The notes below the pieces were generated by a model. It was not told where the DNA came from. It saw nothing but the letters and a program-made list of their open reading frames with translations, and did not search any database. A stretch of DNA of 30,855 nt, taken from positions 1-30,855 of the IMG/VR virus record IMGVR_UViG_2874956758_000002, one strand, 5' to 3'. This document shows, piece by piece, positions 1 to 26,478 of the stretch. The translations under genes and the position numbers were made by a program. This DNA comes from a virus (lineage: Duplodnaviria; Heunggongvirae; Uroviricota; Caudoviricetes). Numbering within the stretch: the first letter of the stretch is position 1; every line of letters starts with the position of its first letter.

Positions 1-1152
1 TCATTCCAGCCCGCATTGTTGGCGGTACATTTCAGGGCTGACTGCACCCAGCGATAATTTTATACGCCGCTCGTTATACCATCTGATGTAAGCATCTACA
101 TGCTGCATGAACTTTTCTGGCGTGATGCCCGACCATTTACGCCCATAATACATTTCCGTTTTCAGTCTGCCGAAAAAGCCTTCGCATGCAGCATTATCAG
201 GTGAACATCCTTTACGGGACATTGAGCGAATAAGACCTGCTGCATTCACTCTTTCCAGCCAGCCTGGCCAGCGATAATGCCCACCTCTGTCACTGTGTAT
301 CACCGGTCGTTCGCCAGCATTTAACGTTTCGACAGCGCTATCCAGCATAGTGTTGACCAGTTCAGCATCGGGGCGTGTACTGAGAGACCAGCTCACAACT
401 TTTCCATCGAAGCAGTCCACCACCGGTGACAGCCAGACTTTACCTGCAGGGAGCTGGAACTCCGTGATATCTGTCAGCCATTTCTGATTAGGTTGCTCCG
501 CCTTAAAATCTCTGGCGATAAGGTTATCCGGAGCCGGTCCGATTTTTCCGCAATATGAGCTGTAGCGGCGACGACGGTTACGGCTGACGACAAGCTGTTC
601 CTCCACCATAAGTCTGCGTACAACCTTTTCTGATAGCCGAACCCCCTCATGCCTGAGCATCGCATGCAGGCGACGATAGCCATAACACTGGTAATTACTG
701 TTAAATATATCTGTCAGCATCGTACGTATCGTGGCGTATTTATCACCGGCTTTCAGGGCAGCCCGGTGATAAAAATAACTGCTACGGGCAAGGCCCAGAA
801 CATGCAGTAATTCTGTCAGGGGATATGTTTGTCTCAGGGCATCAGCGATCTTTGTTTTTTCTCTGTTGTTCAGGTGACTGATACTGATGCCCGGGTCTTT
901 TTTTATGATTTCCTCCGCCTTTTTCAGAATATCCAGCTCCATCTGCCGGCGGCGTATTTCCTGATTCAGTCGGGCGACTTCCTCCCGCAACGCATCGCGT
1001 TCTGCCTCCAGGGAAGGTTCGTTATGTTTACGCATAGTCTGGTAAGCACTGTTGCCGATAATTTCATCTTTCCATTTATACAATACCGCACGACTGACAC
1101 CAATACGCCTGGCGATTTCACTGGCTGATACTTGTCGTGTACAGAGTGCCAT
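1..1152 (-). CDS. IS3-family transposase, OrfA (HTH, leucine zipper) fused in-frame to OrfB (DDE domain); element truncated at its 5' end by IS66 copy 1
   Basis: 383-aa ORF with an HTH, a coiled-coil ending in ILKKA, then an OrfB-like region (motif PNQKWLTDITEF, catalytic DDE core). Stop codon at 1..3; ATG at 1150..1152 lies 7 bp from the IS66 end. No frameshift is needed between the OrfA and OrfB parts. Confidence 0.85.
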   Translation of the reverse strand: MALCTRQVSASEIARRIGVSRAVLYKWKDEIIGNSAYQTMRKHNEPSLEAERDALREEVARLNQEIRRRQMELDILKKAEEIIKKDPGISISHLNNREKTKIADALRQTYPLTELLHVLGLARSSYFYHRAALKAGDKYATIRTMLTDIFNSNYQCYGYRRLHAMLRHEGVRLSEKVVRRLMVEEQLVVSRNRRRRYSSYCGKIGPAPDNLIARDFKAEQPNQKWLTDITEFQLPAGKVWLSPVVDCFDGKVVSWSLSTRPDAELVNTMLDSAVETLNAGERPVIHSDRGGHYRWPGWLERVNAAGLIRSMSRKGCSPDNAACEGFFGRLKTEMYYGRKWSGITPEKFMQHVDAYIRWYNERRIKLSLGAVSPEMYRQQCGLE

Positions 1153-1196: not shown

Positions 1197-2735
1197 TTAT
1201 TCAGCTGGCAGTGCTATGCGCCACGGAAGCAGTTCGCTGACCCGGTTGACCGGCCAGTCTGCTATGACGCCAAGCACATGGCGAAGGTAGCTTTCTGGAT
1301 CCACGTCATTCAGTTTGCACGTCCCGATCAGGCTGTACAGTAGCGCTCCCCGCTCACCACCATGGTCAGAGCCGAAGAACAGGAAGTTTTTACGACCCAG
1401 ACTGACCGCCCGCAGGGCATTTTCAGCGATGTTGTTGTCGATTTCCACCCAGCCATCGTTCGCATAGTACGTCAGTGCCGGCCACTGGTTAAGTGCGTAC
1501 GCGAACGCCTTCGCCAACTCTGAGTGTCGCGACAGGGTCTTCATCTTTTCACGCAACCAGCTTTCCAGGGATTTCAACAGCGGTTTCGTTTTTCGCTGAC
1601 GTTCAGCAAGCCGCTGCTCTGCCGGCATTCCCCTTATATCCGCCTCTATGGCGTACAACTGACCGAGCTGCTCCAGGGCTTCTTCCGTCAGTGCTGACGG
1701 GATGCGGACGTGCACATCGTGGATCTTTCGGCGGGCATGAGCCCAGCAGGCAGCTTCCGTTATCCCACCATTGCGGTACAGCTCGTTGAACCCGGCGTAC
1801 GCATCCGCTTGCAGCACACCGCTGAAGCAAGCAAGATGAGTCTGCGGATGGATGCCTTTTCTGTCCGGGCTGTAAGCGAACCACACTGCAGGTGCCAACG
1901 CTGACCCGGCATTGCGGTCATCACGAACATACGCCCACAACCGCCCGGTCTTCGTCTTCTTATTACCCGGCATCAGTACCTGGACCGGGGTATCATCAGC
2001 ATGGAGTTTGCCGTCAGTCATGACATAGCCATGAAGCGCCTCTTCCAGCGGAGACAGCAGCCGGCAGCATGCATCCACCCAGCCCGACAGCAGTGAACGG
2101 CTCAGCTCCACACCTTGCCGGCCGTATATTTCTGACTGGCGATACAGCGGGGTGTGCTCTGCATACTTCGAGGTCAGCACGCGGGCCAGCAGCCCCGGTC
2201 CGGCGATACCCCGCTCGATGGGCCGCGAAGGTGCAGGTGCCTGCACGATGGCATCGCACTGAGTACAGGCATGTTTTTCCCGTACCGTCCGGATAACCCG
2301 GAAGGCACTACGCATCAACTCCAGCTGTTCGGCGGTATCCTCGCCCAGATAGCTCAGTGAACCGCCGCAGTTCGGGCAGCACGGCGCCGCAGGCAACAGT
2401 CGCTTTTCGTCACGGGGTAGTGATTCAGGGAACGGCTTACGGGTGCGGGTCTGACGCAACGGACGCTGTACTGCCGGGTCATACACCCTACCAGTCAGCG
2501 TATCGCTCTCTTTCTGAAGCCGGTTCAGATCGGCTTCCATTTGTGCGATACGGCGGGAGACTTTTTCGGAACGACTGCCGAAGTTCATCCGGCGGAGTTT
2601 ATCCAGCTGCGCCTGCAGATGGTCTATTTCGCGCTCCCGGTTGCTCAGCTTTTCCTGCAGGGCATGGATCAGCGCTTCCTGTTCGGCCAGGCGCTGTTTC
2701 AGCAGGAAGATGTCGTCAGAAGAGATGTCGTTCAT
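1197..2735 (-). CDS. tnpC: IS66-family transposase TnpC
   Basis: 512-aa ORF with N-terminal coiled-coil, CxxC zinc-finger motifs (CCPNCGG, CTQCD) and the characteristic IS66 transposase core; near-identical to ORF 19558..21090. Confidence 0.9.
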
Positions 2736-2784
2736 AAGCCCGTATTTTACCGGGCTTATTCTGTGACAACCAGGATAAAGAGAT

Positions 2785-3132
2785 TTACAGCATGGTCAGG
2801 GAGGTCAGCAGCCGCTTAGGCTGTCGCCAGTCGATACCTTCCAGCAGCATCGCCAGCTGCGCCTGCGTAAGGAACACTTTGCCATCACGGGCTGACGGCC
2901 AGGCGAAGCGCCCACGCTCCAGCCGTTTGGTCAGGAGGCACAGTCCGTCACCGGTGGACCACAGCAGTTTAACCTGACTGCCGCTGCGGCCCCGGAAAAT
3001 GAAAACATGGCCGGACATGGGATCGTCTTTCAGCGCCGTCTGTACTTTCGCAGCCAGACCGTTGAAGCCATTTCTCATATCGGTGATACCGGCAACCAGC
3101 CAAATTTTGGTCCCGGAAGGTAACGGGATCAT
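2785..3132 (-). CDS. tnpB: IS66-family accessory protein TnpB (orf2)
   Basis: 115-aa ORF in the typical position, overlapping the upstream orfA stop (ATGA); identical to ORF 19161..19508. Confidence 0.9.
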
Positions 3133-3530
3133 CGCTTCAGTTCCTGTATCAGCAGAGTCAGGAGCTTTTCGCTGACATTGCCATTGAAGCGGAGCGTCCC
3201 GTGCCGGAACGTTACCTCACAGCTGATACTGAGGGTTTCCGGATCCTCTGCGAGCGATTCTGGCTGTTCGGCAGCTGCATCGAGAGTCACAGGAAGTAGC
3301 TGGGGGCTCTCTGAAGAAGGTAATAGCAGCTTTCCCTCGCGCCATTGTTGTCGCCATTTGAACAACAGATTGGCGTTAATGCCATTTTCAAGAGCAAGTT
3401 TTGAGATGGATATCCCGGGTTCACAGGAGGCAGCAACGAGCTGCTGTTTAAATTCGGGAGGATAATTAGGGCAGCCTTTTCGCCTGCCGGGAGTCACATT
3501 TTTCTGCATATCTGACACTTTGGTTCCCAC
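3129..3530 (-). CDS. tnpA: IS66-family accessory protein TnpA (orf1)
   Basis: 133-aa ORF, first gene of the IS66 operon; identical to ORF 18763..19164. Confidence 0.9.
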   Translation of the reverse strand: MGTKVSDMQKNVTPGRRKGCPNYPPEFKQQLVAASCEPGISISKLALENGINANLLFKWRQQWREGKLLLPSSESPQLLPVTLDAAAEQPESLAEDPETLSISCEVTFRHGTLRFNGNVSEKLLTLLIQELKR

Positions 3531-3600
3531 TACTTATTGGTGGACACCACTTTGTCTAATTCGTCAGATTCTGACCAGACGGTTCAGGCTGTACGCTTAC

Positions 3601-3704
3601 CGTTCTCCACCGACCTCTGTCAGATCGATTTCCCAGAGCACCACGCTGGCCGACTGCTCCGCACGGGTGCATTCATTCAGTGTTTCCTGCCGGATATCCT
3701 GCAT
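3601..3704 (-). pseudogene. L: 5' fragment (34 codons) of lambda-like minor tail protein L gene, interrupted by IS66 copy 1
   Basis: Minus-strand translation from ATG at 3702..3704 reads MQDIRQETLNECTRAEQSASVVLWEIDLTEVGGE, matching the lambda gpL N-terminus as recalled. Ends in GGAGAACG directly abutting the IS66 terminus. Confidence 0.85.
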
Positions 3705-4033
3705 CAGTTCACCACCTGTTCAAACTCTGCGCTGAACTCAACACGCAGCATACTGACCCGCGACGACCATTTTGCGCAGGTCACCTTTATCTGCCGCCAC
3801 TCATAAGGCGGCGTCCACAGAAAGGACTTCCAGCCCCCGTGCTCAGCCAGAAACGACTCAAGCGCCGTGGCCTCCCAACGGGGAACAGAAAGCGTCACGC
3901 TGTACGTTTTCAGGTCGGCATTCAGCCCGGCAGGCGCTCGCTGGGAATAGCCATCACCAAAGCGCACCTTTCTTACGGAAGGGGCCGAAGCCACATCCAT
4001 ACCGGGTTTCACTTTCCAGCGGAAGGTTTTCAT
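3704..4033 (-). CDS. M: lambda-like minor tail protein M
   Basis: 109-aa ORF (MKTFRWKVKPGMDV...FEQVVN) matching lambda gpM in sequence and length; stop overlaps the L start in ATGA. Confidence 0.9.
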   Translation of the reverse strand: MKTFRWKVKPGMDVASAPSVRKVRFGDGYSQRAPAGLNADLKTYSVTLSVPRWEATALESFLAEHGGWKSFLWTPPYEWRQIKVTCAKWSSRVSMLRVEFSAEFEQVVN

Positions 4034-7392: not shown

Positions 7393-8133
7393 TTAACTGG
7401 CGGTGACGTTGATTTCTGCAACCGCAGCAAGTTCACCATTACCGGATACGACAGGAATGTTGACCTTGCCTGCAGCAACACCTTTCACGGTGATGGTCAT
7501 ACCACTGACCGACACGGTGGCTTTTGTTTTATCCGCAGACACCGCACGGAGGCTCTTGTCGGTTGCGCCTTCCGGCTGGAATGCCACGGTCAGCGTGGTG
7601 CTCTGCCCTTTCACCACCGAGGTGCTGGCAGGCGTCACGGTCATGCCGGTTGCCGCTGTGACCGTGCTGCGATCTTCTGCCATCGACGGACGTCCCACGT
7701 TGGTGACTTTCACCGTGCGGGTGATCACTTCCTTCGCCGTCACCGCCTTACCGATACTGCTGACCCAGCCGCGGAACACATCGACCGTGCCGTTCGGGAA
7801 GCGGATTTTATAGGCACGGGTATCCCCTTCATTAAACCACGCCAGCAGCGCCTGCTGCCCCTGCTCTCCGGGCATCCACGCCAGCGTGAAGCTGGTATCT
7901 CCGGCAGATTTCTGCCCCTGCCCGGTCGCAGTCCAGTCCGCATCTTCATCATCGAGATAGCTGTCGTCATAGGACTCAGCGGTCAGTTCGCCGGGCGTCA
8001 GGTCTTTAACTTTAGCCAGACGCGACCAGTCAACGTCTGAAAGCGGGTTCGCATAAGGATCACCGTTCCCCTTATAAACCCACAGTGTGGTCCCGGCCCC
8101 TTTCACCGGCATTACTGGATTTGATACAGGCAT
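7393..8133 (-). CDS. V: lambda-like major tail protein V
   Basis: Matches lambda gpV from [22 protein letters not shown]; start chosen at the internal Met (8133) giving 246 aa as in lambda; the ORF track extends 10 codons further upstream. Confidence 0.85.
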
Positions 8134-8140
8134 ATCGTCC

Positions 8141-8536
8141 TCACATTTCATAGGTAATGACATAAGTCAGATCGGCTGAACTCCACAGGCCCGCATCATC
8201 GTCGCGCCGGTAGTCATAGCCGCTGGCCACCATACTGGTGATCAAATCTGACAGTGCCGGGATATCGCTCATCACCGGATAAATCCGGGACTCCATCCAC
8301 GAATCCAGCTCTGAATCCGGCACCTGAGCAGGCAGGAAAACTTCAATATGCAGCTCCGCCTGCCAGGTATCGCTGTCCAGCTCTTCGCCCGTGTATTCAG
8401 CGCCGGTGAGATAAACGGCAATTGCCGGAAAATCCGCCTCATCAAAAACAGCGGGGCGACCATCAAAAAGCGTCGCCCCGGTGTCATGCTTTTCCAGTGC
8501 ATCCAGTACGGCTGCACGGAGTTCAGTATGTTTCAT
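8141..8536 (-). CDS. U: lambda-like tail terminator protein U
   Basis: 131-aa ORF ([33 protein letters not shown]...) matching lambda gpU. Confidence 0.9.
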
Positions 8537-9110
8537 CGCTTTATTACCATTCTCAGTTGATGCTGCAGCGCATAGCCCAGCTCTTTCGGAAGACGTTCAC
8601 GCCGTATCCGTTCAATATTCTGTTTAAATGCCGTGGTAAGCGGCACCGCCATCGGAATTTTCACCACATCAATGGGGTAACGATTTTTCCCGGCCACACG
8701 CTGCATGACATGCCACCGGCCATTTTTCAGTTGCTGAATAAACGCGCCGGGAATACGACGGTTACCCACCACAAGCACGCTGCCGCCACCTTTCAGGGAT
8801 GAACGCTGCCCCTTTTTACGACGCCTGCGGCGGGACAGGACAACCCGCGCATTACCCAGCTTGATTACGGGCAAATCCCCCGGTTAACTTTGATTCTGGC
8901 CTGCGGATTTTTGACCGTGGCCCTTTTCAGCCTGGCCCTTTCCTTTACCAGTTTCCGGCGTACCTTTGTCTCACGGGCAACCTGTGACGCCGACTGCGAT
9001 ATCGCGGATGAAGCAACGCGGTTAATGGCCATTGCGGCGGCACCAGGGACCGCCGTTTTGCTGATACGGCTGAGGTTTTCAACGGCCTGCTCAAGACCTT
9101 TTATGGCCAT
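8533..9110 (-). pseudogene. Z: lambda-like tail completion protein Z, disrupted by a 1-bp deletion in a G run (or sequencing error)
   Basis: N-terminal 78 aa (ORF 8865..9110) and C-terminal 113 aa (ORF 8533..8874) both match lambda gpZ but lie in different frames. The frame break is at the C5 run 8877..8881 (G5 on the coding strand), where lambda as recalled has G6. Confidence 0.8.
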
Positions 9111-9121
9111 ACATCCCCCTT

Positions 9122-9475
9122 TCAGCGGCGACGGTTAACGGCAGGCGGTACGCCCCGTCCAAGCCAGAGATGACAGCTTCCACCATCATCCGGCGAAACC
9201 CGATCTACCCAGAAGTTTTCCTCACCGATGGTCAGCGTGTCTCCACGCCGCAGCTGCAGCACCTCATCAGTCCGGACAAACAGGGGCGGGCTGGAGCCTT
9301 CAACGCGCACGCCCTGTCCGGCATAGCTGATATTTTCAGGGTCATCAAAAACACCACGTATCACAGCACCGGACTGCTCACCGGATGTCATGGTGGCTGA
9401 CGTTCCCATGTACCCGCGTATCGTTTCATCGGCTCGGGCAATGGCAGCATCGAACAGATTATCGAAATCAGCCAC
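9122..9475 (-). CDS. FII: lambda-like head-tail joining protein FII
   Basis: 117-aa ORF (MADFDNLFDAAIARADETIRGYMG...) matching lambda gpFII in sequence and length. Confidence 0.9.
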   Translation of the reverse strand: MADFDNLFDAAIARADETIRGYMGTSATMTSGEQSGAVIRGVFDDPENISYAGQGVRVEGSSPPLFVRTDEVLQLRRGDTLTIGEENFWVDRVSPDDGGSCHLWLGRGVPPAVNRRR

Positions 9476-9923: not shown

Positions 9924-10961
9924 TTACGCCAGTTGAACGGACACGAACTCATCAGGATCAGCCAGCAGCATCAGCGGTGCTGACTGAATCATGGTGAACT
10001 CTCGCGCCGGATCGCCGGATGTCTTCCAGTTTTTCGGATAACGGGGAGACGCATTAATACCCTCACTCAATGCATCCGCATCCTGAATACAGCCATAGGT
10101 ACGCAGACCGCGTGCATGAGTGTTACCCAGCACCATCGTGTTGTCCGGCAGGAAGTTCTTTTTGACGCCGTTTTCCACGTACTGTCCGGAATACACGACG
10201 ATGGCCACATCGCCATACATTCCCTTATAAGACACCGCTTTGCCCAGGTCTTTTACCGCTGTCTCCAGTTCGGAATTAGAACCACGACGGGTATCCAGAG
10301 CCTCTTTTATCGCTCTGAATGAACGGTATTTCTTCCATACATTACCGCCCATAATGATGATATTAGTGACGCCCTCACTAAATTCTGCGTAGCTCTCAAT
10401 ATCATCATTTGGATCAAAAGTTTCTTTATCCTTACCTGACCACTCAGCACCGCCAAACTGAGTGATGATATTTTGTGGTTTAATATTCCAGTCCAGCTCA
10501 TAACGTTCAATACCATCGCCCTCAATGATATTTTTCCCCGTTGTGATTGCCTGAACAGCAAGCCATTCAATACGTGCACGAATAGCTTTAGCTTGATTTA
10601 CAATCGCCTGTTTAACTTTAATATTACGCGCCCCAAAAGCATTGTATTGCTCAGGTGATACACCAGCAGGGCGCACAGCTAACTTATTTGGATCAATGCT
10701 GCTTTTCGGCTTCATATAGCCTGGACGAATTGTTTTTGATTCGTACCCTTCGTCACGTGAAACTTTACTACCCACCATAGGAGAACAAAACGCTGCAATT
10801 GGGATATTTGGATCGTCGATTGTATCAAGAATAATATCGCGCGATTCAAACATTACCGAGCGAGTAAAAAACAAACTGGTAAACAACGCATTTAGTTGTT
10901 TTTGTACATCTACAGCATTAACCACCTGTACAAGCTGAGTAGGCGAATATAAATCAACCAT
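9924..10961 (-). CDS. E: major capsid protein, lambda gpE family (mosaic: divergent 5' two-thirds, lambda-like 3' third)
   Basis: C-terminal ~115 aa (from LDTRRGSNSELETAVKDLGKAVSYKGMYGDV to SVQLA) are near-identical to lambda gpE as recalled; the N-terminal ~230 aa are homologous but divergent and AT-rich. Start assigned to ATG at 10959..10961 (MVDLYSPTQL) preceded by AGAGGA. Confidence 0.8.
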   Translation of the reverse strand: MVDLYSPTQLVQVVNAVDVQKQLNALFTSLFFTRSVMFESRDIILDTIDDPNIPIAAFCSPMVGSKVSRDEGYESKTIRPGYMKPKSSIDPNKLAVRPAGVSPEQYNAFGARNIKVKQAIVNQAKAIRARIEWLAVQAITTGKNIIEGDGIERYELDWNIKPQNIITQFGGAEWSGKDKETFDPNDDIESYAEFSEGVTNIIIMGGNVWKKYRSFRAIKEALDTRRGSNSELETAVKDLGKAVSYKGMYGDVAIVVYSGQYVENGVKKNFLPDNTMVLGNTHARGLRTYGCIQDADALSEGINASPRYPKNWKTSGDPAREFTMIQSAPLMLLADPDEFVSVQLA

Positions 10962-11178: not shown

Positions 11179-11628
11179 TTAAAACGGGATATCATCTCCC
11201 CATTGCTCATTATCTCCCACTGGTGGCTGGCTTCCTTGCTGATCTGCCTGTTGTTTTGCTCTGTTCAGTGCGTCAGTAGCCTGCCCCTGTTGGCCTTTAT
11301 TGCCGCCCGGTCGCACCGATCGCGCACTGATTACGCTGTCTGCGATAACCTGCCAGCCCAGCCGCGTTTCGCCGTTCTGTCCAGTCCACTGGCTCGTCTG
11401 CATGTTACCCGCCACGCTCAGGAGTTCGCCTTTGTGATGCTTTGCCAGCGCGTCGGCTTGTCTGCCAAACGCCAGGACAGATAACCACATCGTCGCCTGA
11501 CCGTCATCCGACTGACTGCAGGGCAGTGATACCGCCATACGCGCCAGCGTCATGGGGGTGCCCTTGCTAGTCTGTTTTGTCTGCGGGTCGTCCACCAACC
11601 GCCCGTAAACTGATATTTGCGCCGTCAT
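11179..11628 (-). CDS. ssb: phage-type single-stranded DNA-binding protein (SSB)
   Basis: 149-aa ORF with an OB-fold-like N-terminal region, a Gly/Gln-rich linker and the SSB C-terminal acidic tail ending DDIPF. Confidence 0.75.
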   Translation of the reverse strand: MTAQISVYGRLVDDPQTKQTSKGTPMTLARMAVSLPCSQSDDGQATMWLSVLAFGRQADALAKHHKGELLSVAGNMQTSQWTGQNGETRLGWQVIADSVISARSVRPGGNKGQQGQATDALNRAKQQADQQGSQPPVGDNEQWGDDIPF

Positions 11629-11634
11629 GCTGCC

Positions 11635-11961
11635 TGAGGTAGCCTGAGTTTAACGGACACTCCTTCCTGAAATAGAATGGCATCAGAAGGAGCTAATAAT
11701 GAGCAGAAAAACCCAACGTTACTCTAAAGAGTTCAAAGCCGAAGCTGTCAGAACGGTTCTTGAAAATCAACTTTCGATCAGTGAAGGCGCTTCCCGATTA
11801 TCCCTTCCTGAAGGCACTTTAGGACAATGGGTTACCGCCGCCAGAAAAGGGCTCGGTACTCCTGGTTCCCGCACGGTGGCTGAACTGGAATCTGAAATTC
11901 TGCAACTGCGTAAGGCGTTAAATGAAGCTCGCCTTGAGCGAGATATATTAAAAAAAGCAAC
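11635..11961 (+). mobile_element. IS3-family (IS600-like) left-end fragment: IRL plus 5' ~93 codons of orfA, arm 1 of an inverted pair flanking IS30
   Basis: Begins TGAGGTAGCCTGAGTTTAACGG. Encodes the OrfA N-terminus MSRKTQRYSKEFKAEAVRTVLENQ...ILKKATVDS, then runs into the IS30 end; the rest of the element is absent. Confidence 0.7.
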
Positions 11962-13182
11962 TGTAGATTCAATTGGTCAACGCAACAGTTATGTGAAAAC
12001 ATGGGGTTGCGGAGGTTTTTTGAATGAGACGAACATTTACAGCAGAGGAAAAAGCCTCTGTTTTTGAACTATGGAAGAACGGAACAGGCTTCAGTGAAAT
12101 AGCGAATATCCTGGGTTCAAAACCCGGAACGATCTTCACTATGTTAAGGGATACTGGCGGCATAAAACCCCATGAGCGTAAGCGGGCTGTAGCTCACCTG
12201 ACACTGTCTGAGCGCGAGGAGATACGAGCTGGTTTGTCAGCCAAAATGAGCATTCGTGCGATAGCTACTGCGCTGAATCGCAGTCCTTCGACGATCTCAC
12301 GTGAAGTTCAGCGTAATCGGGGCAGACGCTATTACAAAGCTGTTGATGCTAATAACCGAGCCAACAGAATGGCGAAAAGGCCAAAACCGTGCTTACTGGA
12401 TCAAAATTTACCATTGCGAAAGCTTGTTCTGGAAAAGCTGGAGATGAAATGGTCTCCAGAGCAAATATCAGGATGGTTAAGGCGAACAAAACCACGTCAA
12501 AAAACGCTGCGAATATCACCTGAGACAATTTATAAAACGCTGTACTTTCGTAGCCGTGAAGCGCTACACCACCTGAATATACAGCATCTGCGACGGTCGC
12601 ATAGCCTTCGCCATGGCAGGCGTCATACCCGCAAAGGCGAAAGAGGTACGATTAACATAGTGAACGGAACACCAATTCACGAACGTTCCCGAAATATCGA
12701 TAACAGACGCTCTCTGGGACATTGGGAGGGCGATTTAGTCTCAGGTACAAAAAACTCTCATATAGCCACACTTGTAGACCGAAAATCACGTTATACGATC
12801 ATCCTTAGACTCAGGGGCAAAGATTCTGTCTCAGTAAATCAGGCTCTTACCGACAAATTCCTGAGTTTACCGTCAGAACTCAGAAAATCACTGACATGGG
12901 ACAGAGGAATGGAACTGGCCAGACATCTAGAATTTACTGTCAGCACCGGCGTTAAAGTTTACTTCTGCGATCCTCAGAGTCCTTGGCAGCGGGGAACAAA
13001 TGAGAACACAAATGGGCTAATTCGGCAGTACTTTCCTAAAAAGACATGTCTTGCCCAATATACTCAACATGAACTAGATCTGGTTGCTGCTCAGCTAAAC
13101 AACAGACCGAGAAAGACACTGAAGTTCAAAACACCGAAAGAGATAATTGAAAGGGGTGTTGCATTGACAGATTGAATCTACA
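11962..13182 (+). mobile_element. IS30, complete (1221 bp)
   Basis: Terminal inverted repeats TGTAGATTCAAT at both ends; single 383-aa transposase ORF; length matches IS30. Confidence 0.9.
12024..13175 (+). CDS. insI: IS30 transposase
   Basis: 383-aa ORF with N-terminal HTH and C-terminal DDE domain, recognised as the IS30 transposase. Confidence 0.9.
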   Translation: MRRTFTAEEKASVFELWKNGTGFSEIANILGSKPGTIFTMLRDTGGIKPHERKRAVAHLTLSEREEIRAGLSAKMSIRAIATALNRSPSTISREVQRNRGRRYYKAVDANNRANRMAKRPKPCLLDQNLPLRKLVLEKLEMKWSPEQISGWLRRTKPRQKTLRISPETIYKTLYFRSREALHHLNIQHLRRSHSLRHGRRHTRKGERGTINIVNGTPIHERSRNIDNRRSLGHWEGDLVSGTKNSHIATLVDRKSRYTIILRLRGKDSVSVNQALTDKFLSLPSELRKSLTWDRGMELARHLEFTVSTGVKVYFCDPQSPWQRGTNENTNGLIRQYFPKKTCLAQYTQHELDLVAAQLNNRPRKTLKFKTPKEIIERGVALTD

Positions 13183-13508
13183 GTTGCTTTTTTTAATATA
13201 TCTCGCTCAAGGCGAGCTTCATTTAACGCCTTACGCAGTTGCAGAATTTCAGATTCCAGTTCAGCCACCGTGCGGGAACCAGGAGTACCGAGCCCTTTTC
13301 TGGCGGCGGTAACCCATTGTCCTAAAGTGCCTTCAGGAAGGGATAATCGGGAAGCGCCTTCACTGATCGAAAGTTGATTTTCAAGAACCGTTCTGACAGC
13401 TTCGGCTTTGAACTCTTTAGAGTAACGTTGGGTTTTTCTGCTCATTATTAGCTCCTTCTGATGCCATTCTATTTCAGGAAGGAGTGTCCGTTAAACTCAG
13501 GCTACCTC
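13183..13508 (-). mobile_element. IS3-family (IS600-like) left-end fragment, arm 2, inverted copy of 11635..11961
   Basis: Reverse complement reproduces the same IRL and OrfA N-terminus (ORF 13095..13445 is identical through VDSI). Its outer end overlaps the xis start codon. Confidence 0.7.
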
Positions 13509-18762: not shown

Positions 18763-19164
18763 GTGGGAACCAAAGTGTCAGATATGCAGAAAAATGTGAC
18801 TCCCGGCAGGCGAAAAGGCTGCCCTAATTATCCTCCCGAATTTAAACAGCAGCTCGTTGCTGCCTCCTGTGAACCCGGGATATCCATCTCAAAACTTGCT
18901 CTTGAAAATGGCATTAACGCCAATCTGTTGTTCAAATGGCGACAACAATGGCGCGAGGGAAAGCTGCTATTACCTTCTTCAGAGAGCCCCCAGCTACTTC
19001 CTGTGACTCTCGATGCAGCTGCCGAACAGCCAGAATCGCTCGCAGAGGACCCGGAAACCCTCAGTATCAGCTGTGAGGTAACGTTCCGGCACGGGACGCT
19101 CCGCTTCAATGGCAATGTCAGCGAAAAGCTCCTGACTCTGCTGATACAGGAACTGAAGCGATGA
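18763..19164 (+). CDS. tnpA: IS66-family TnpA (orf1)
   Basis: 133 aa, identical to 3129..3530 product. Confidence 0.9.
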   Translation: MGTKVSDMQKNVTPGRRKGCPNYPPEFKQQLVAASCEPGISISKLALENGINANLLFKWRQQWREGKLLLPSSESPQLLPVTLDAAAEQPESLAEDPETLSISCEVTFRHGTLRFNGNVSEKLLTLLIQELKR

Positions 19165-19508
19165 TCCCGTTACCTTCCGGGACCAAAATTTGGCTGGTTG
19201 CCGGTATCACCGATATGAGAAATGGCTTCAACGGTCTGGCTGCGAAAGTACAGACGGCGCTGAAAGACGATCCCATGTCCGGCCATGTTTTCATTTTCCG
19301 GGGCCGCAGCGGCAGTCAGGTTAAACTGCTGTGGTCCACCGGTGACGGACTGTGCCTCCTGACCAAACGGCTGGAGCGTGGGCGCTTCGCCTGGCCGTCA
19401 GCCCGTGATGGCAAAGTGTTCCTTACGCAGGCGCAGCTGGCGATGCTGCTGGAAGGTATCGACTGGCGACAGCCTAAGCGGCTGCTGACCTCCCTGACCA
19501 TGCTGTAA
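19161..19508 (+). CDS. tnpB: IS66-family TnpB (orf2)
   Basis: 115 aa, identical to 2785..3132 product. Confidence 0.9.
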
Positions 19509-19557
19509 ATCTCTTTATCCTGGTTGTCACAGAATAAGCCCGGTAAAATACGGGCTT

Positions 19558-21090
19558 ATGAACGACATCTCTTCTGACGACATCTTCCTGCTGAAACAGC
19601 GCCTGGCCGAACAGGAGATCCACGCCCTGCAGGAAAAGCTGAGCAACCGGGAGCGCGAAATAGACCATCTGCAGGCGCAGCTGGATAAACTCCGCCGGAT
19701 GAACTTCGGCAGTCGTTCCGAAAAAGTCTCCCGCCGTATCGCACAAATGGAAGCCGATCTGAACCGGCTTCAGAAAGAGAGCGATACGCTGACTGGTAGG
19801 GTGTATGACCCGGCAGTACAGCGTCCGTTGCGTCAGACCCGCACCCGTAAGCCGTTCCCTGAATCACTACCCCGTGACGAAAAGCGACTGTTGCCTGTGG
19901 CGCCGTGCTGCCCGAACTGCGGCGGTTCACTGAGCTATCTGGGCGAGGATACCGCCGAACAGCTGGAGTTGATGCGTAGTGCCTTCCGGGTTATCCGGAC
20001 GGTACGGGAAAAACATGCCTGTACTCAGTGCGATGCCATCGTGCAGGCACCTGCACCTTCGCGGCCCATCGAGCGGGGTATCGCCGGACCGGGGCTGCTG
20101 GCCCGCGTGCTGACCTCGAAGTATGCAGAGCACACCCCGCTGTATCGCCAGTCAGAAATATACGGCCGGCAAGGTGTGGAGCTGAGCCGTTCACTGCTGT
20201 CGGGCTGGGTGGATGCATGCTGCCGGCTGCTGTCTCCGCTGGAAGAGGCGCTTCATGGCTATGTCATGACTGACGGCAAACTCCATGCTGATGATACCCC
20301 GGTCCAGGTACTGATGCCGGGTAATAAGAAGACGAAGACCGGGCGGTTGTGGGCGTATGTTCGTGATGACCGCAATGCCGGGTCAGCGTTGGCACCTGCA
20401 GTGTGGTTCGCTTACAGCCCGGACAGAAAAGGCATCCATCCGCAGACTCATCTTGCTTGCTTCAGCGGTGTGCTGCAAGCGGATGCGTACGCCGGGTTCA
20501 ACGAGCTGTACCGCAATGGTGGGATAACGGAAGCTGCCTGCTGGGCTCATGCCCGCCGAAAGATCCACGATGTGCACGTCCGCATCCCGTCAGCACTGAC
20601 GGAAGAAGCCCTGGAGCAGCTCGGTCAGTTGTACGCCATAGAGGCGGATATAAGGGGAATGCCGGCAGAGCAGCGGCTTGCTGAACGTCAGCGAAAAACG
20701 AAACCGCTGTTGAAATCCCTGGAAAGCTGGTTGCGTGAAAAGATGAAGACCCTGTCGCGACACTCAGAGTTGGCGAAGGCGTTCGCGTACGCACTTAACC
20801 AGTGGCCGGCACTGACGTACTATGCGAACGATGGCTGGGTGGAAATCGACAACAACATCGCTGAAAATGCCCTGCGGGCGGTCAGTCTGGGTCGTAAAAA
20901 CTTCCTGTTCTTCGGCTCTGACCATGGTGGTGAGCGGGGAGCGCTACTGTACAGCCTGATCGGGACGTGCAAACTGAATGACGTGGATCCAGAAAGCTAC
21001 CTTCGCCATGTGCTTGGCGTCATAGCAGACTGGCCGGTCAACCGGGTCAGCGAACTGCTTCCGTGGCGCATAGCACTGCCAGCTGAATAA
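19558..21090 (+). CDS. tnpC: IS66-family transposase TnpC
   Basis: 510 aa; versus copy 1 lacks two codons (EQEIHALQ vs [10 protein letters not shown]) and has A for V at one position (PAAPCC vs PVAPCC). Confidence 0.9.
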
Positions 21091-21127: not shown

Positions 21128-21730
21128 GGAGAACGTTATTTTTTCTGTAATGAGCAGAACGAAAAAGGTGAGCCGGTCACCTGGCAGGGGCGACAGTATC
21201 AGCCGTATCCCATTCAGGGGAGTGGTTTTGAACTGAATGGCAAAGGCACCAGTACGCGCCCCACGCTGACGGTTTCTAACCTGTTCGGTATGGTCACCGG
21301 GATGGCGGAAGATCTGCAGAGTCTGGTCGGCGGAACGGTGGTCCGGCGTAAGGTTTACGCCCGTTTTCTGGATGCGGTGAACTTCGTCAACGGAAACAGT
21401 GACGCCGATCCGGAGCAGGAGGTGATCAGCCGCTGGCGCATTGAGCAGTGCAGCGAACTGAGCGCGGTGAGTGCCTCTTTTGTACTGTCCACGCCGACGG
21501 AAACGGACGGCGCTGTTTTTCCGGGACGTATCATGCTGGCCAACACCTGCACCTGGACCTATCGCGGCGATGAGTGCGGTTATCACGGTCCGGCGGTCGC
21601 GGATGAATATGACCAGCCAACGTCCGATATCACGAAGGATAAATGCAGCAAATGCCTGAGCGGTTGTAAGTTCCGCAATAACGTCGGCAACTTTGGCGGC
21701 TTCCTTTCCATTAACAAACTTTCGCAGTAA
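21128..21730 (+). pseudogene. L: 3' fragment of lambda-like minor tail protein L gene, separated from its 5' end by IS66 and inversion
   Basis: In-frame translation from 21128 reads GERYFFCNEQNEKGEPVTWQGRQYQPYPIQGSGFELNGKGTSTRPTLTVSNL...SINKLSQ, matching lambda gpL residues ~33 to the end. Begins with GGAGAACG, the same 8 bp that end the 5' fragment at 3601..3608. Confidence 0.9.
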
Positions 21731-21735
21731 ATACC

Positions 21736-22479
21736 ATGACACAGACAGAATCAGCGATTCTGGCGCACGCCCGGCGATGTGCGCCAGCGGAGTCGTGCGG
21801 CTTCGTGGTAAGCACGCCGGAGGGGGAAAGATATTTCCCCTGCGTGAATATCTCCGGTGAGCCGGAGGCGTATTTCCGTATGTCGCCGGAAGACTGGCTG
21901 CAGGCAGAAATGCAGGGTGAGATCGTGGCGCTGGTCCACAGCCACCCCGGTGGTCTGCCCTGGCTGAGTGAGGCCGACCGGCGGCTGCAGGTGCAGAGTG
22001 ATTTGCCGTGGTGGCTGGTCTGCCGGGGGACGATTCATAAGTTCCGCTGTGTGCCGCATCTCACCGGGCGGCGCTTTGAGCACGGGGTGACGGACTGTTA
22101 CACGCTGTTCCGGGATGCTTATCATCTGGCGGGGATTGAGATGCCGGATTTTCATCGCGAGGATGACTGGTGGCGTCACGGTCAGAATCTCTATCTGGAT
22201 AATCTGGAGGCCACAGGGCTGTATCAGGTGCCGTTGTCATCAGCACAACCGGGCGATGTGCTGCTGTGCTGTTTTGGTTCATCGGTGCCGAATCATGCCG
22301 CCATTTACTGTGGTGATGGCGAGCTGCTGCACCATATTCCTGAACAACTGAGCAAACGAGAGAGGTATACCGACAAATGGCAGCGACGCACACACTCCCT
22401 CTGGCGTCACCGGGCATGGCGCGCATCTGCCTTTACGGGGATTTGCAACGATTTGGCCGCCGCATCGACCTTCGTGTGA
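21736..22479 (+). CDS. K: lambda-like tail tip assembly protein K
   Basis: Matches lambda gpK including the HSHP metal-binding motif. The lambda-annotated 199-aa start corresponds to ATG 21880; the ORF is open from ATG 21736. 3' end overlaps I by ~100 bp as in lambda. Confidence 0.85.
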   Translation: MTQTESAILAHARRCAPAESCGFVVSTPEGERYFPCVNISGEPEAYFRMSPEDWLQAEMQGEIVALVHSHPGGLPWLSEADRRLQVQSDLPWWLVCRGTIHKFRCVPHLTGRRFEHGVTDCYTLFRDAYHLAGIEMPDFHREDDWWRHGQNLYLDNLEATGLYQVPLSSAQPGDVLLCCFGSSVPNHAAIYCGDGELLHHIPEQLSKRERYTDKWQRRTHSLWRHRAWRASAFTGICNDLAAASTFV

Positions 22480-23048
22480 AAACGGGGGCTGAAGCCATCC
22501 GCGCACTGGCCACACAGCTCCCGGTGTTTCGTCAGAAACTGAGCGACGGCGGGTATCAGGTACGGATTGCCGGGCGGGACGTCAGCACGTCCGGGTTAAC
22601 GGCGCAGTTACATGAGACTCTGCCTGATGGCGCTGTGATTCATATTGTTCCCAGAGTCGCCGGGGCCAAGTCAGGTGGCGTATTCCAGATTGTCCTGGGG
22701 GCTGCCGCCATTGCCGGATCATTCTTTACCGCCGGAGCCACCCTTGCAGCATGGGGGGCAGCCATTGGGGCCGGTGGTATGACCGGCATCCTGTTTTCTC
22801 TCGGTGCCAGTATGGTGCTCGGTGGTGTGGCGCAGATGCTGGCACCGAAAGCCAGAACTCCCCGTACACAGACAACGGATAACGGCAAACAGAACACCTA
22901 TTTCTCCTCACTGGATAACATGGTTGCCCAGGGCAATGTTCTGCCGGTTCTGTACGGTGAAATGCGCGTGGGGTCACGCGTGGTTTCTCAGGAGATCAGC
23001 ACGGCAGACGAAGGGGATGGTGGTCAGGTTGTGGTGATTGGTCGCTGA
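22377..23048 (+). CDS. I: lambda-like tail tip assembly protein I
   Basis: 223-aa ORF (MAATHTLPLASPGMARICLYGDLQRF...) matching lambda gpI in sequence and length. Confidence 0.9.
   Translation: MAATHTLPLASPGMARICLYGDLQRFGRRIDLRVKTGAEAIRALATQLPVFRQKLSDGGYQVRIAGRDVSTSGLTAQLHETLPDGAVIHIVPRVAGAKSGGVFQIVLGAAAIAGSFFTAGATLAAWGAAIGAGGMTGILFSLGASMVLGGVAQMLAPKARTPRTQTTDNGKQNTYFSSLDNMVAQGNVLPVLYGEMRVGSRVVSQEISTADEGDGGQVVVIGR

Positions 23049-23105: not shown

Positions 23106-26478
<3,373 letters not shown>

Follow-up and report, generated by a model that had tools for sequence, protein, structure and literature searches.

The tail completion gene Z of a lambda-type prophage is interrupted in the window analysed here (the whole stretch of DNA studied, 30,855 nucleotides), and the break is due to a single missing G. 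The question raised by this locus is whether the lesion is a mutation that inactivated the gene or an error in the consensus of the assembly that carries it. The original prediction had left the choice between a sequencing error and a true inactivation of Z in a defective prophage, and both alternatives proved sound: the prophage is grossly defective, and the comparison with sister copies favours an error. The window is 100% identical to Shigella dysenteriae CP026831.1 / GCA_002950055.1.

Identity of the split gene

The gene order FII-Z-U-V-G-T-H is that of a lambda-type tail operon, in which Z sits between FII and U. Indeed, an intact head-tail joining gene FII (9122..9475, minus strand; PF05354, 117 aa) is encoded directly upstream of Z, and an intact tail terminator gene U (8141..8536, minus strand; PF06141, 131 aa) directly downstream. 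The whole coding region of gpZ, the tail completion protein, lies at 8533..9110 on the minus strand and comprises 578 nt instead of 579, with an interrupted frame. It is represented in the ORF list and by Pfam as two parts: (i) an N-terminal ORF of 81 aa (8865..9110, minus strand), made of 78 authentic residues followed by ICP and a stop, which ends KVNRGICP, the TAA of the shifted frame being located at 8867..8865 on the minus strand, and (ii) a C-terminal ORF of 113 aa with a TTG start (8533..8874, minus strand; MPVIKLGNARVV...RMVIKR), which contains the codons L80 to R192 in the -1 frame and ends in ATGA, where its stop and the start codon of U overlap. In all, the C-terminal 113/114 codons are placed in the -1 frame by the shift. 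Both ORFs match the Minor_tail_Z family (PF06763) above its curated cut-off of 23.9 bits: model positions 1-76 correspond to residues 3-78 of the 81-aa ORF (100.6 bits, E 1e-28) and model positions 79-190 to residues 2-113 of the 113-aa ORF (161.9 bits, E 2e-47), so that the two halves of Z abut exactly.

The site of the frameshift is a run of five G (five C on the plus strand) at 8877..8881, minus strand, within the codons R77-G78-D79. Direct reading of the minus strand gives ...AAAGTTAACC GGGGG ATTTGCCCGTAA, and, over a longer stretch, ...ATCAAAGTTAACC-GGGGG-ATTTGCCCGTAA; lambda and all sister assemblies described below have six G at this position. In an alignment with lambda (J02459), the Z gene of the window shares 98.2% nucleotide identity with its homolog and contains one 1-nt gap, the difference between five and six G being the only indel across the 579-nt gene. 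When the G is put back, the 192-aa product is 100% identical to lambda gpZ, and the 11 nucleotide substitutions that separate the two genes are all synonymous, 10 of them being located downstream of the shift. The reading frame has therefore not decayed after the shift, and this shows a frameshift that would be instantaneous on an evolutionary scale. The lesion is specific and is not a chance pattern. The original prediction of a gpZ homolog split by one lost G, with 78 N-terminal and 113 C-terminal residues in different frames, five G in place of the six of lambda and a product ending after KVNRGICP, is thereby borne out, both in the identity of the gene and in the nature of the lesion, by the ORF list, Pfam, the alignment and the repaired translation.

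Condition of the prophage

No terminase, portal, protease or decoration genes (Nu1, A, W, B, C, D) are encoded between xis and the capsid gene. From the excisionase-like gene (DUF1233) to the capsid gene, only an SSB gene and an insertion carrying an IS30 element are present. Virion genes besides Z are lost or disrupted, as is typical of defective lambdoid prophages, and the element is a prophage remnant unable to build a virion with or without Z. Since no virion can be built, Z has no function to lose. In lambda, Z is needed for infectious tails; the importance that the original prediction gave to this requirement is justified for lambda and has no consequence here, as the element makes no virions.

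The major capsid gene (9924-10961, minus strand; considered together with 11179-11628, minus strand) is chimeric. Its residues 1 to approximately 240 are 100% identical to the product of a satellite-type capsid gene found in contig L006, and the remainder, from approximately residue 241 to 345, has the same sequence as an ordinary lambdoid E. In the E. coli loci L006 and L014, such a capsid gene is surrounded by a satellite-like module comprising a primase, an SSB, a head-decoration homolog, AlpA and Nu1. Two capsid genes seem to have recombined, with a deletion, to give the chimeric gene, and the undeleted tandem arrangement of these genes is found in 137 complete genomes of E. coli.

The tail gene L is cut approximately 105 nt from its start, and its two halves lie 17.5 kb apart in opposite orientation, the tail operon being broken at this point. 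A 5' stub of about 35 codons (3598..3705, minus strand; positions 3-458 of the reference M-L-K sequence aligning to 4053-3598 of the window) abuts a first copy of an IS66-family element, which contains three ORFs (1197..3530, minus strand). The rest of L (21128..21730, plus strand; PF05100 positions 59-206; reference positions 448-1900 aligning to 21128-22580 of the window) abuts a second copy (18763..21090, plus strand), which is inverted relative to the first and 99.6% identical to it. These two inverted copies bracket a 17.5-kb inversion, and the inverted segment carries head and tail genes of the prophage, the integrase and the host genes yecE, yecN, cmoA and cmoB. The halves of L overlap by approximately 11 nt of the reference sequence, which is consistent with a target-site duplication.

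The tail-tip gene J is altered at two places. The C-terminal receptor-binding domain (PF12421, 25969-26478) is encoded in another frame than the rest of J (23109-26153), and the similarity to a reference J falls from 95% to 40% at the break, located at about 26.09-26.12 kb. This frameshift is shared base for base with sister assemblies and is consequently real, a genuine frameshift at a mosaic junction. At 23798-23804, J is without 39 bp in frame (13 codons, SRNYHLRGRILQV), a segment that is present in the sister assemblies L022, L024 and L025 and in a reference J. Direct repeats of 7 bp (GCAGGTG) border the deletion, which looks like a real slippage event; the resulting J of 1,014 aa is found in CP026831.1 only.

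Other insertions are present in the window. A block of 1,861 bp (11636-13496), absent from L016, L018 and L019, contains an element of the IS30 type, with its transposase at 12024-13175. On each side of this element is a copy, approximately 327 bp long, of the left end of an IS3-family element (HTH_Tnp_1 ORFs), the two copies being inverted relative to each other, so that the whole block forms a long palindrome-like structure. An ORF coding for an IS3-family transposase of 383 aa (1-1152, minus strand; HTH_Tnp_1, HTH_21 and rve domains) is located at the edge of the window; it abuts a truncated torZ in the source genome and adds to the very high density of IS elements.

The missing G in other assemblies and other genomes

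The same prophage remnant is present in at least four other assemblies, namely L016 (JARFTJ01), L018 (SRR36469256), L019 (GCA_053979195.1) and L020 (ERR5982241), and the number of sister contigs is at least four and probably seven. These four share with the window an identical tape-measure protein H of 853 aa, the int-yecE junction and the junction between M, the L stub and IS66. A single uninterrupted ORF of about 192 codons for Z is absent from the window and present in all four, where the run has six G (an additional C at 8881 on the plus strand). The comparison with other copies of the same prophage, which had been proposed as a check, thus gave six G and a 192-aa Z in four sister assemblies. 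Base by base, this G is the sole difference between L020 and the window over 8,090 bp; L018 and L019 differ from the window by three SNPs in addition to this G, and the further differences of L016 are confined to IS66.

The contig L020 appears to be especially close to the source of the window. CP026832, the accession next to that of the window, is a PacBio sequence from a set of 59 historical Shigella strains, according to PMC10132075, and CP026831.1 presumably belongs to the same PacBio set, judging by its accession and assembly series. In PMC8795385, two references of S. dysenteriae serotype 10 are given: ERR5982241, which is the strain NCDC 2050-52, and ERR5984615 (L021). ATCC 12039 is the same as CDC A-2050-52 (PMC6964806). 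Two characters are common to the window and L020 alone, namely a C at 7443 and the junction formed by the IS30-containing insertion. On the basis of these shared characters and strain designations, CP026831.1 (PacBio) and L020 (Illumina) are probably derived from the same strain, and we infer that CP026831.1 would be ATCC 12039 / 2050-52.

The five-G allele was also searched for beyond the remnant, with a 49-nt query in which a 28-nt seed is possible only from a C-GGGGG-A context. Among 5,426 complete E. coli genomes, 29 carry it, at 36 places in total, compared with a baseline of approximately 4,100 places for an 86-nt fragment of Z in complete E. coli genomes; it thus represents less than 1% of the Z copies of this species. 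None of the 109 Z-matching records of the phage collection has it, and no match was obtained in GTDB contigs with one genome per species, in which Shigella and E. coli count as a single genome. The allele is carried by unrelated prophages that share 90-97% identity with that of the window, which indicates that the contraction of the G run recurs independently. Three matches in IMG/VR were considered as the origin of the window and rejected; they belong to different prophages with 90-97% identity and illustrate recurrence, not origin. Accessions in the range CP014-CP044 account for 20 of the 29 carriers and for 13 of 59 genomes in an evenly spaced sample of Z-bearing genomes (Fisher p = 4e-5), a category that was chosen post hoc and is confounded with pathotype. 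Among genomes of at least 5.2 Mb, 14 of 19 carriers and 4 of 16 sampled genomes fall in this range (p = 0.007), again with confounding by pathotype. We take this accession range to be the era of PacBio-only assemblies.

At the protein level, the exact 81-aa product of Z is encoded on at least 122 contigs elsewhere, most of them short and of the size of short-read assemblies, and those carriers that were looked up are exclusively unrelated prophages. In four of them (L006, L009, L012 and L013), genes are split throughout the whole prophage, which suggests an error-prone long-read consensus. In Shigella CP026845.1 (L002/L007), an accession of the same series as CP026831.1, the contraction to five G is found in a different prophage, and Z contains a further nonsense codon (CAG to TAG) near its 3' end, downstream of the contraction. 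Given this additional nonsense codon, Z of L002/L007 looks like a pseudogene in genuine decay. Five-G alleles clearly do occur in nature, as indicated by the predominance of contigs of short-read size, by the nonsense codon of L002/L007 and by the copy of E. coli 2013C-3264, which lies in a tail-deleted prophage.

For the window itself, the five-G call in CP026831.1 is likely to be a homopolymer assembly artefact. The missing G would have arisen in the consensus of the long-read (PacBio) assembly CP026831.1, as an error in a G/C homopolymer of six bases, and the real sequence of the strain is probably GGGGGG with an intact ORF for a 192-aa gpZ, as in the other assemblies of the remnant. The comparison of the assemblies points to sequencing chemistry or consensus calling, and not mutation, as the cause. 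Indeed, the five-G lesion is private to CP026831.1 among the assemblies of the remnant, and it has the features expected of a long-read error, namely a homopolymer, at least five to six bases long, whose length changes by one base (here a contraction from six G to five), the change not being reproduced by independent short-read assemblies of the same strain or lineage (four other assemblies with six G, including ERR5982241). An artefact is favoured because the lesion is private, is of a typical error type, is contradicted by at least four assemblies, is the only difference in 8 kb and is followed by no decay.

A genuine and very recent slipped-strand deletion of one G, which would have occurred in the stock or in the lineage and would make Z a pseudogene in the making under no selection, is an unlikely explanation that nevertheless keeps some weight. 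Runs of six G are classic hot spots of replication slippage, and the five-G allele recurs in many unrelated prophages, including contigs of short-read size, L002/L007 and the copy of 2013C-3264 annotated as frameshifted. The existence of such genuine alleles was counted against an artefact. Moreover, the remnant already carries real lesions (the cut by IS66 with the inversion in L, the shared frameshift in J and the loss of head and packaging genes), and the private 39-bp deletion in J of CP026831.1 is not a typical consensus error, so that the stock may carry real private deletions. Over approximately 33 kb compared with a sister complete assembly, the Z site is the only 1-bp homopolymer indel; CP026831.1 is therefore not generally error-ridden, which also counts against an artefact. 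However, only one long-read assembly has the allele, when six G are present in other contigs of the remnant (at least four in number, and probably seven), and L020, the contig that is probably of the same strain, shows no other difference in 8,090 bp. In addition, no nonsynonymous change follows the shift, and a homopolymer consensus error has, a priori, a higher probability than a real 1-bp change that stands alone in this interval.

Possible recoding, significance and comparison with known systems

The five-G gene could in principle be functional, gpZ being produced by -1 ribosomal frameshifting or transcriptional slippage, or the run acting as a phase-variable switch of tail completion, an explanation that is highly improbable. 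According to the sequence, a -1 slip of tRNA-Gly on GGG would give exactly ...N-R-G-D-L-P..., and the same contraction is present in independent prophages. However, C CGG GGG does not conform to the canonical heptamer X XXY YYZ, and the P-site codon would re-pair at two of three positions only. The predicted fold of the 100 nt downstream is no better than that of shuffled sequences (MFE -36.6 versus a mean of -37.9 kcal/mol, z = +0.38). Likewise, the shifted arrangement is not conserved (none of the 109 phage records, 36 of approximately 4,100 E. coli places, and six G in the sister copies), and the remnant is in any case unable to make particles. A run of five G is too short for known transcriptional slippage. 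Programmed frameshifting or slippage at Z was rejected, as the site has no heptamer, no stimulatory structure and no conservation. A broader proposal, in which the six-G run at codons 77-79 of lambdoid Z would be a reversible slippage contingency switch, or in which low-level -1 frameshifting would supply some gpZ, is scarcely credible; the contraction recurs independently in dozens of unrelated prophages, yet it is rare, is missing from viable phages and is located here in an element unable to make tails. A known system for comparison is the programmed -1 frameshift of lambda G/GT, which belongs to the same tail operon and has the same direction as the correction that Z would need. Whereas G/GT relies on a slippery heptamer, G GGA AAG, conserved in all relatives, the Z site has neither heptamer, conservation nor structure, and when tested for membership of this class it proved to resemble G/GT without belonging to it.

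The five-G Z, a probable artefact, is an ordinary case of a homopolymer that differs in length between assemblies, in a well-known gene whose prophage is dead. Its biological weight is small, since Z is a textbook tail gene of lambda and its carrier is dead whether or not Z is intact. Its interest lies rather in curation. The frameshift in Z of CP026831.1 should not, without read support, count as evidence of pseudogenisation. In public assemblies, five-G calls recur at the six-G run of lambdoid Z, and annotations of the type 'frameshifted phage tail protein' at this run consequently deserve suspicion.

Among known genes, the counterpart of the locus is lambda gpZ (UniProt COMPL_LAMBD; PF06763), the same gene at the same position, whose protein is 100% identical once the G is restored. 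Unlike lambda gpZ, which serves a viable phage, the Z gene of the window has five G, is split into ORFs of 81 aa and 113 aa and belongs to a prophage remnant of Shigella dysenteriae that is not functional. A comparable lesion is found in E. coli 2013C-3264 (NZ_CP027544.1, MJ68_RS04040), a complete genome of the 2018 era, in which the same run is contracted to five G with the same 81-aa product; Z is labelled by PGAP as 'phage tail protein, frameshifted' and is a pseudogene. That prophage is also defective, with a truncated U and a deletion from V to J, but it differs from that of the window in its identity (approximately 96%), its chromosomal site and its intact head genes, and its lesion arose independently. 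With respect to the homopolymer errors of long-read-only assemblies, the Z site differs in being the lone indel of this kind in the approximately 33 kb compared, and its status as an error is judged here from assemblies. In its other features it resembles them: it is likewise a one-base loss from six G/C in a row, it is private to the long-read assembly, short-read assemblies of the same lineage contradict it, and the five-G allele is enriched in older accessions of complete genomes.
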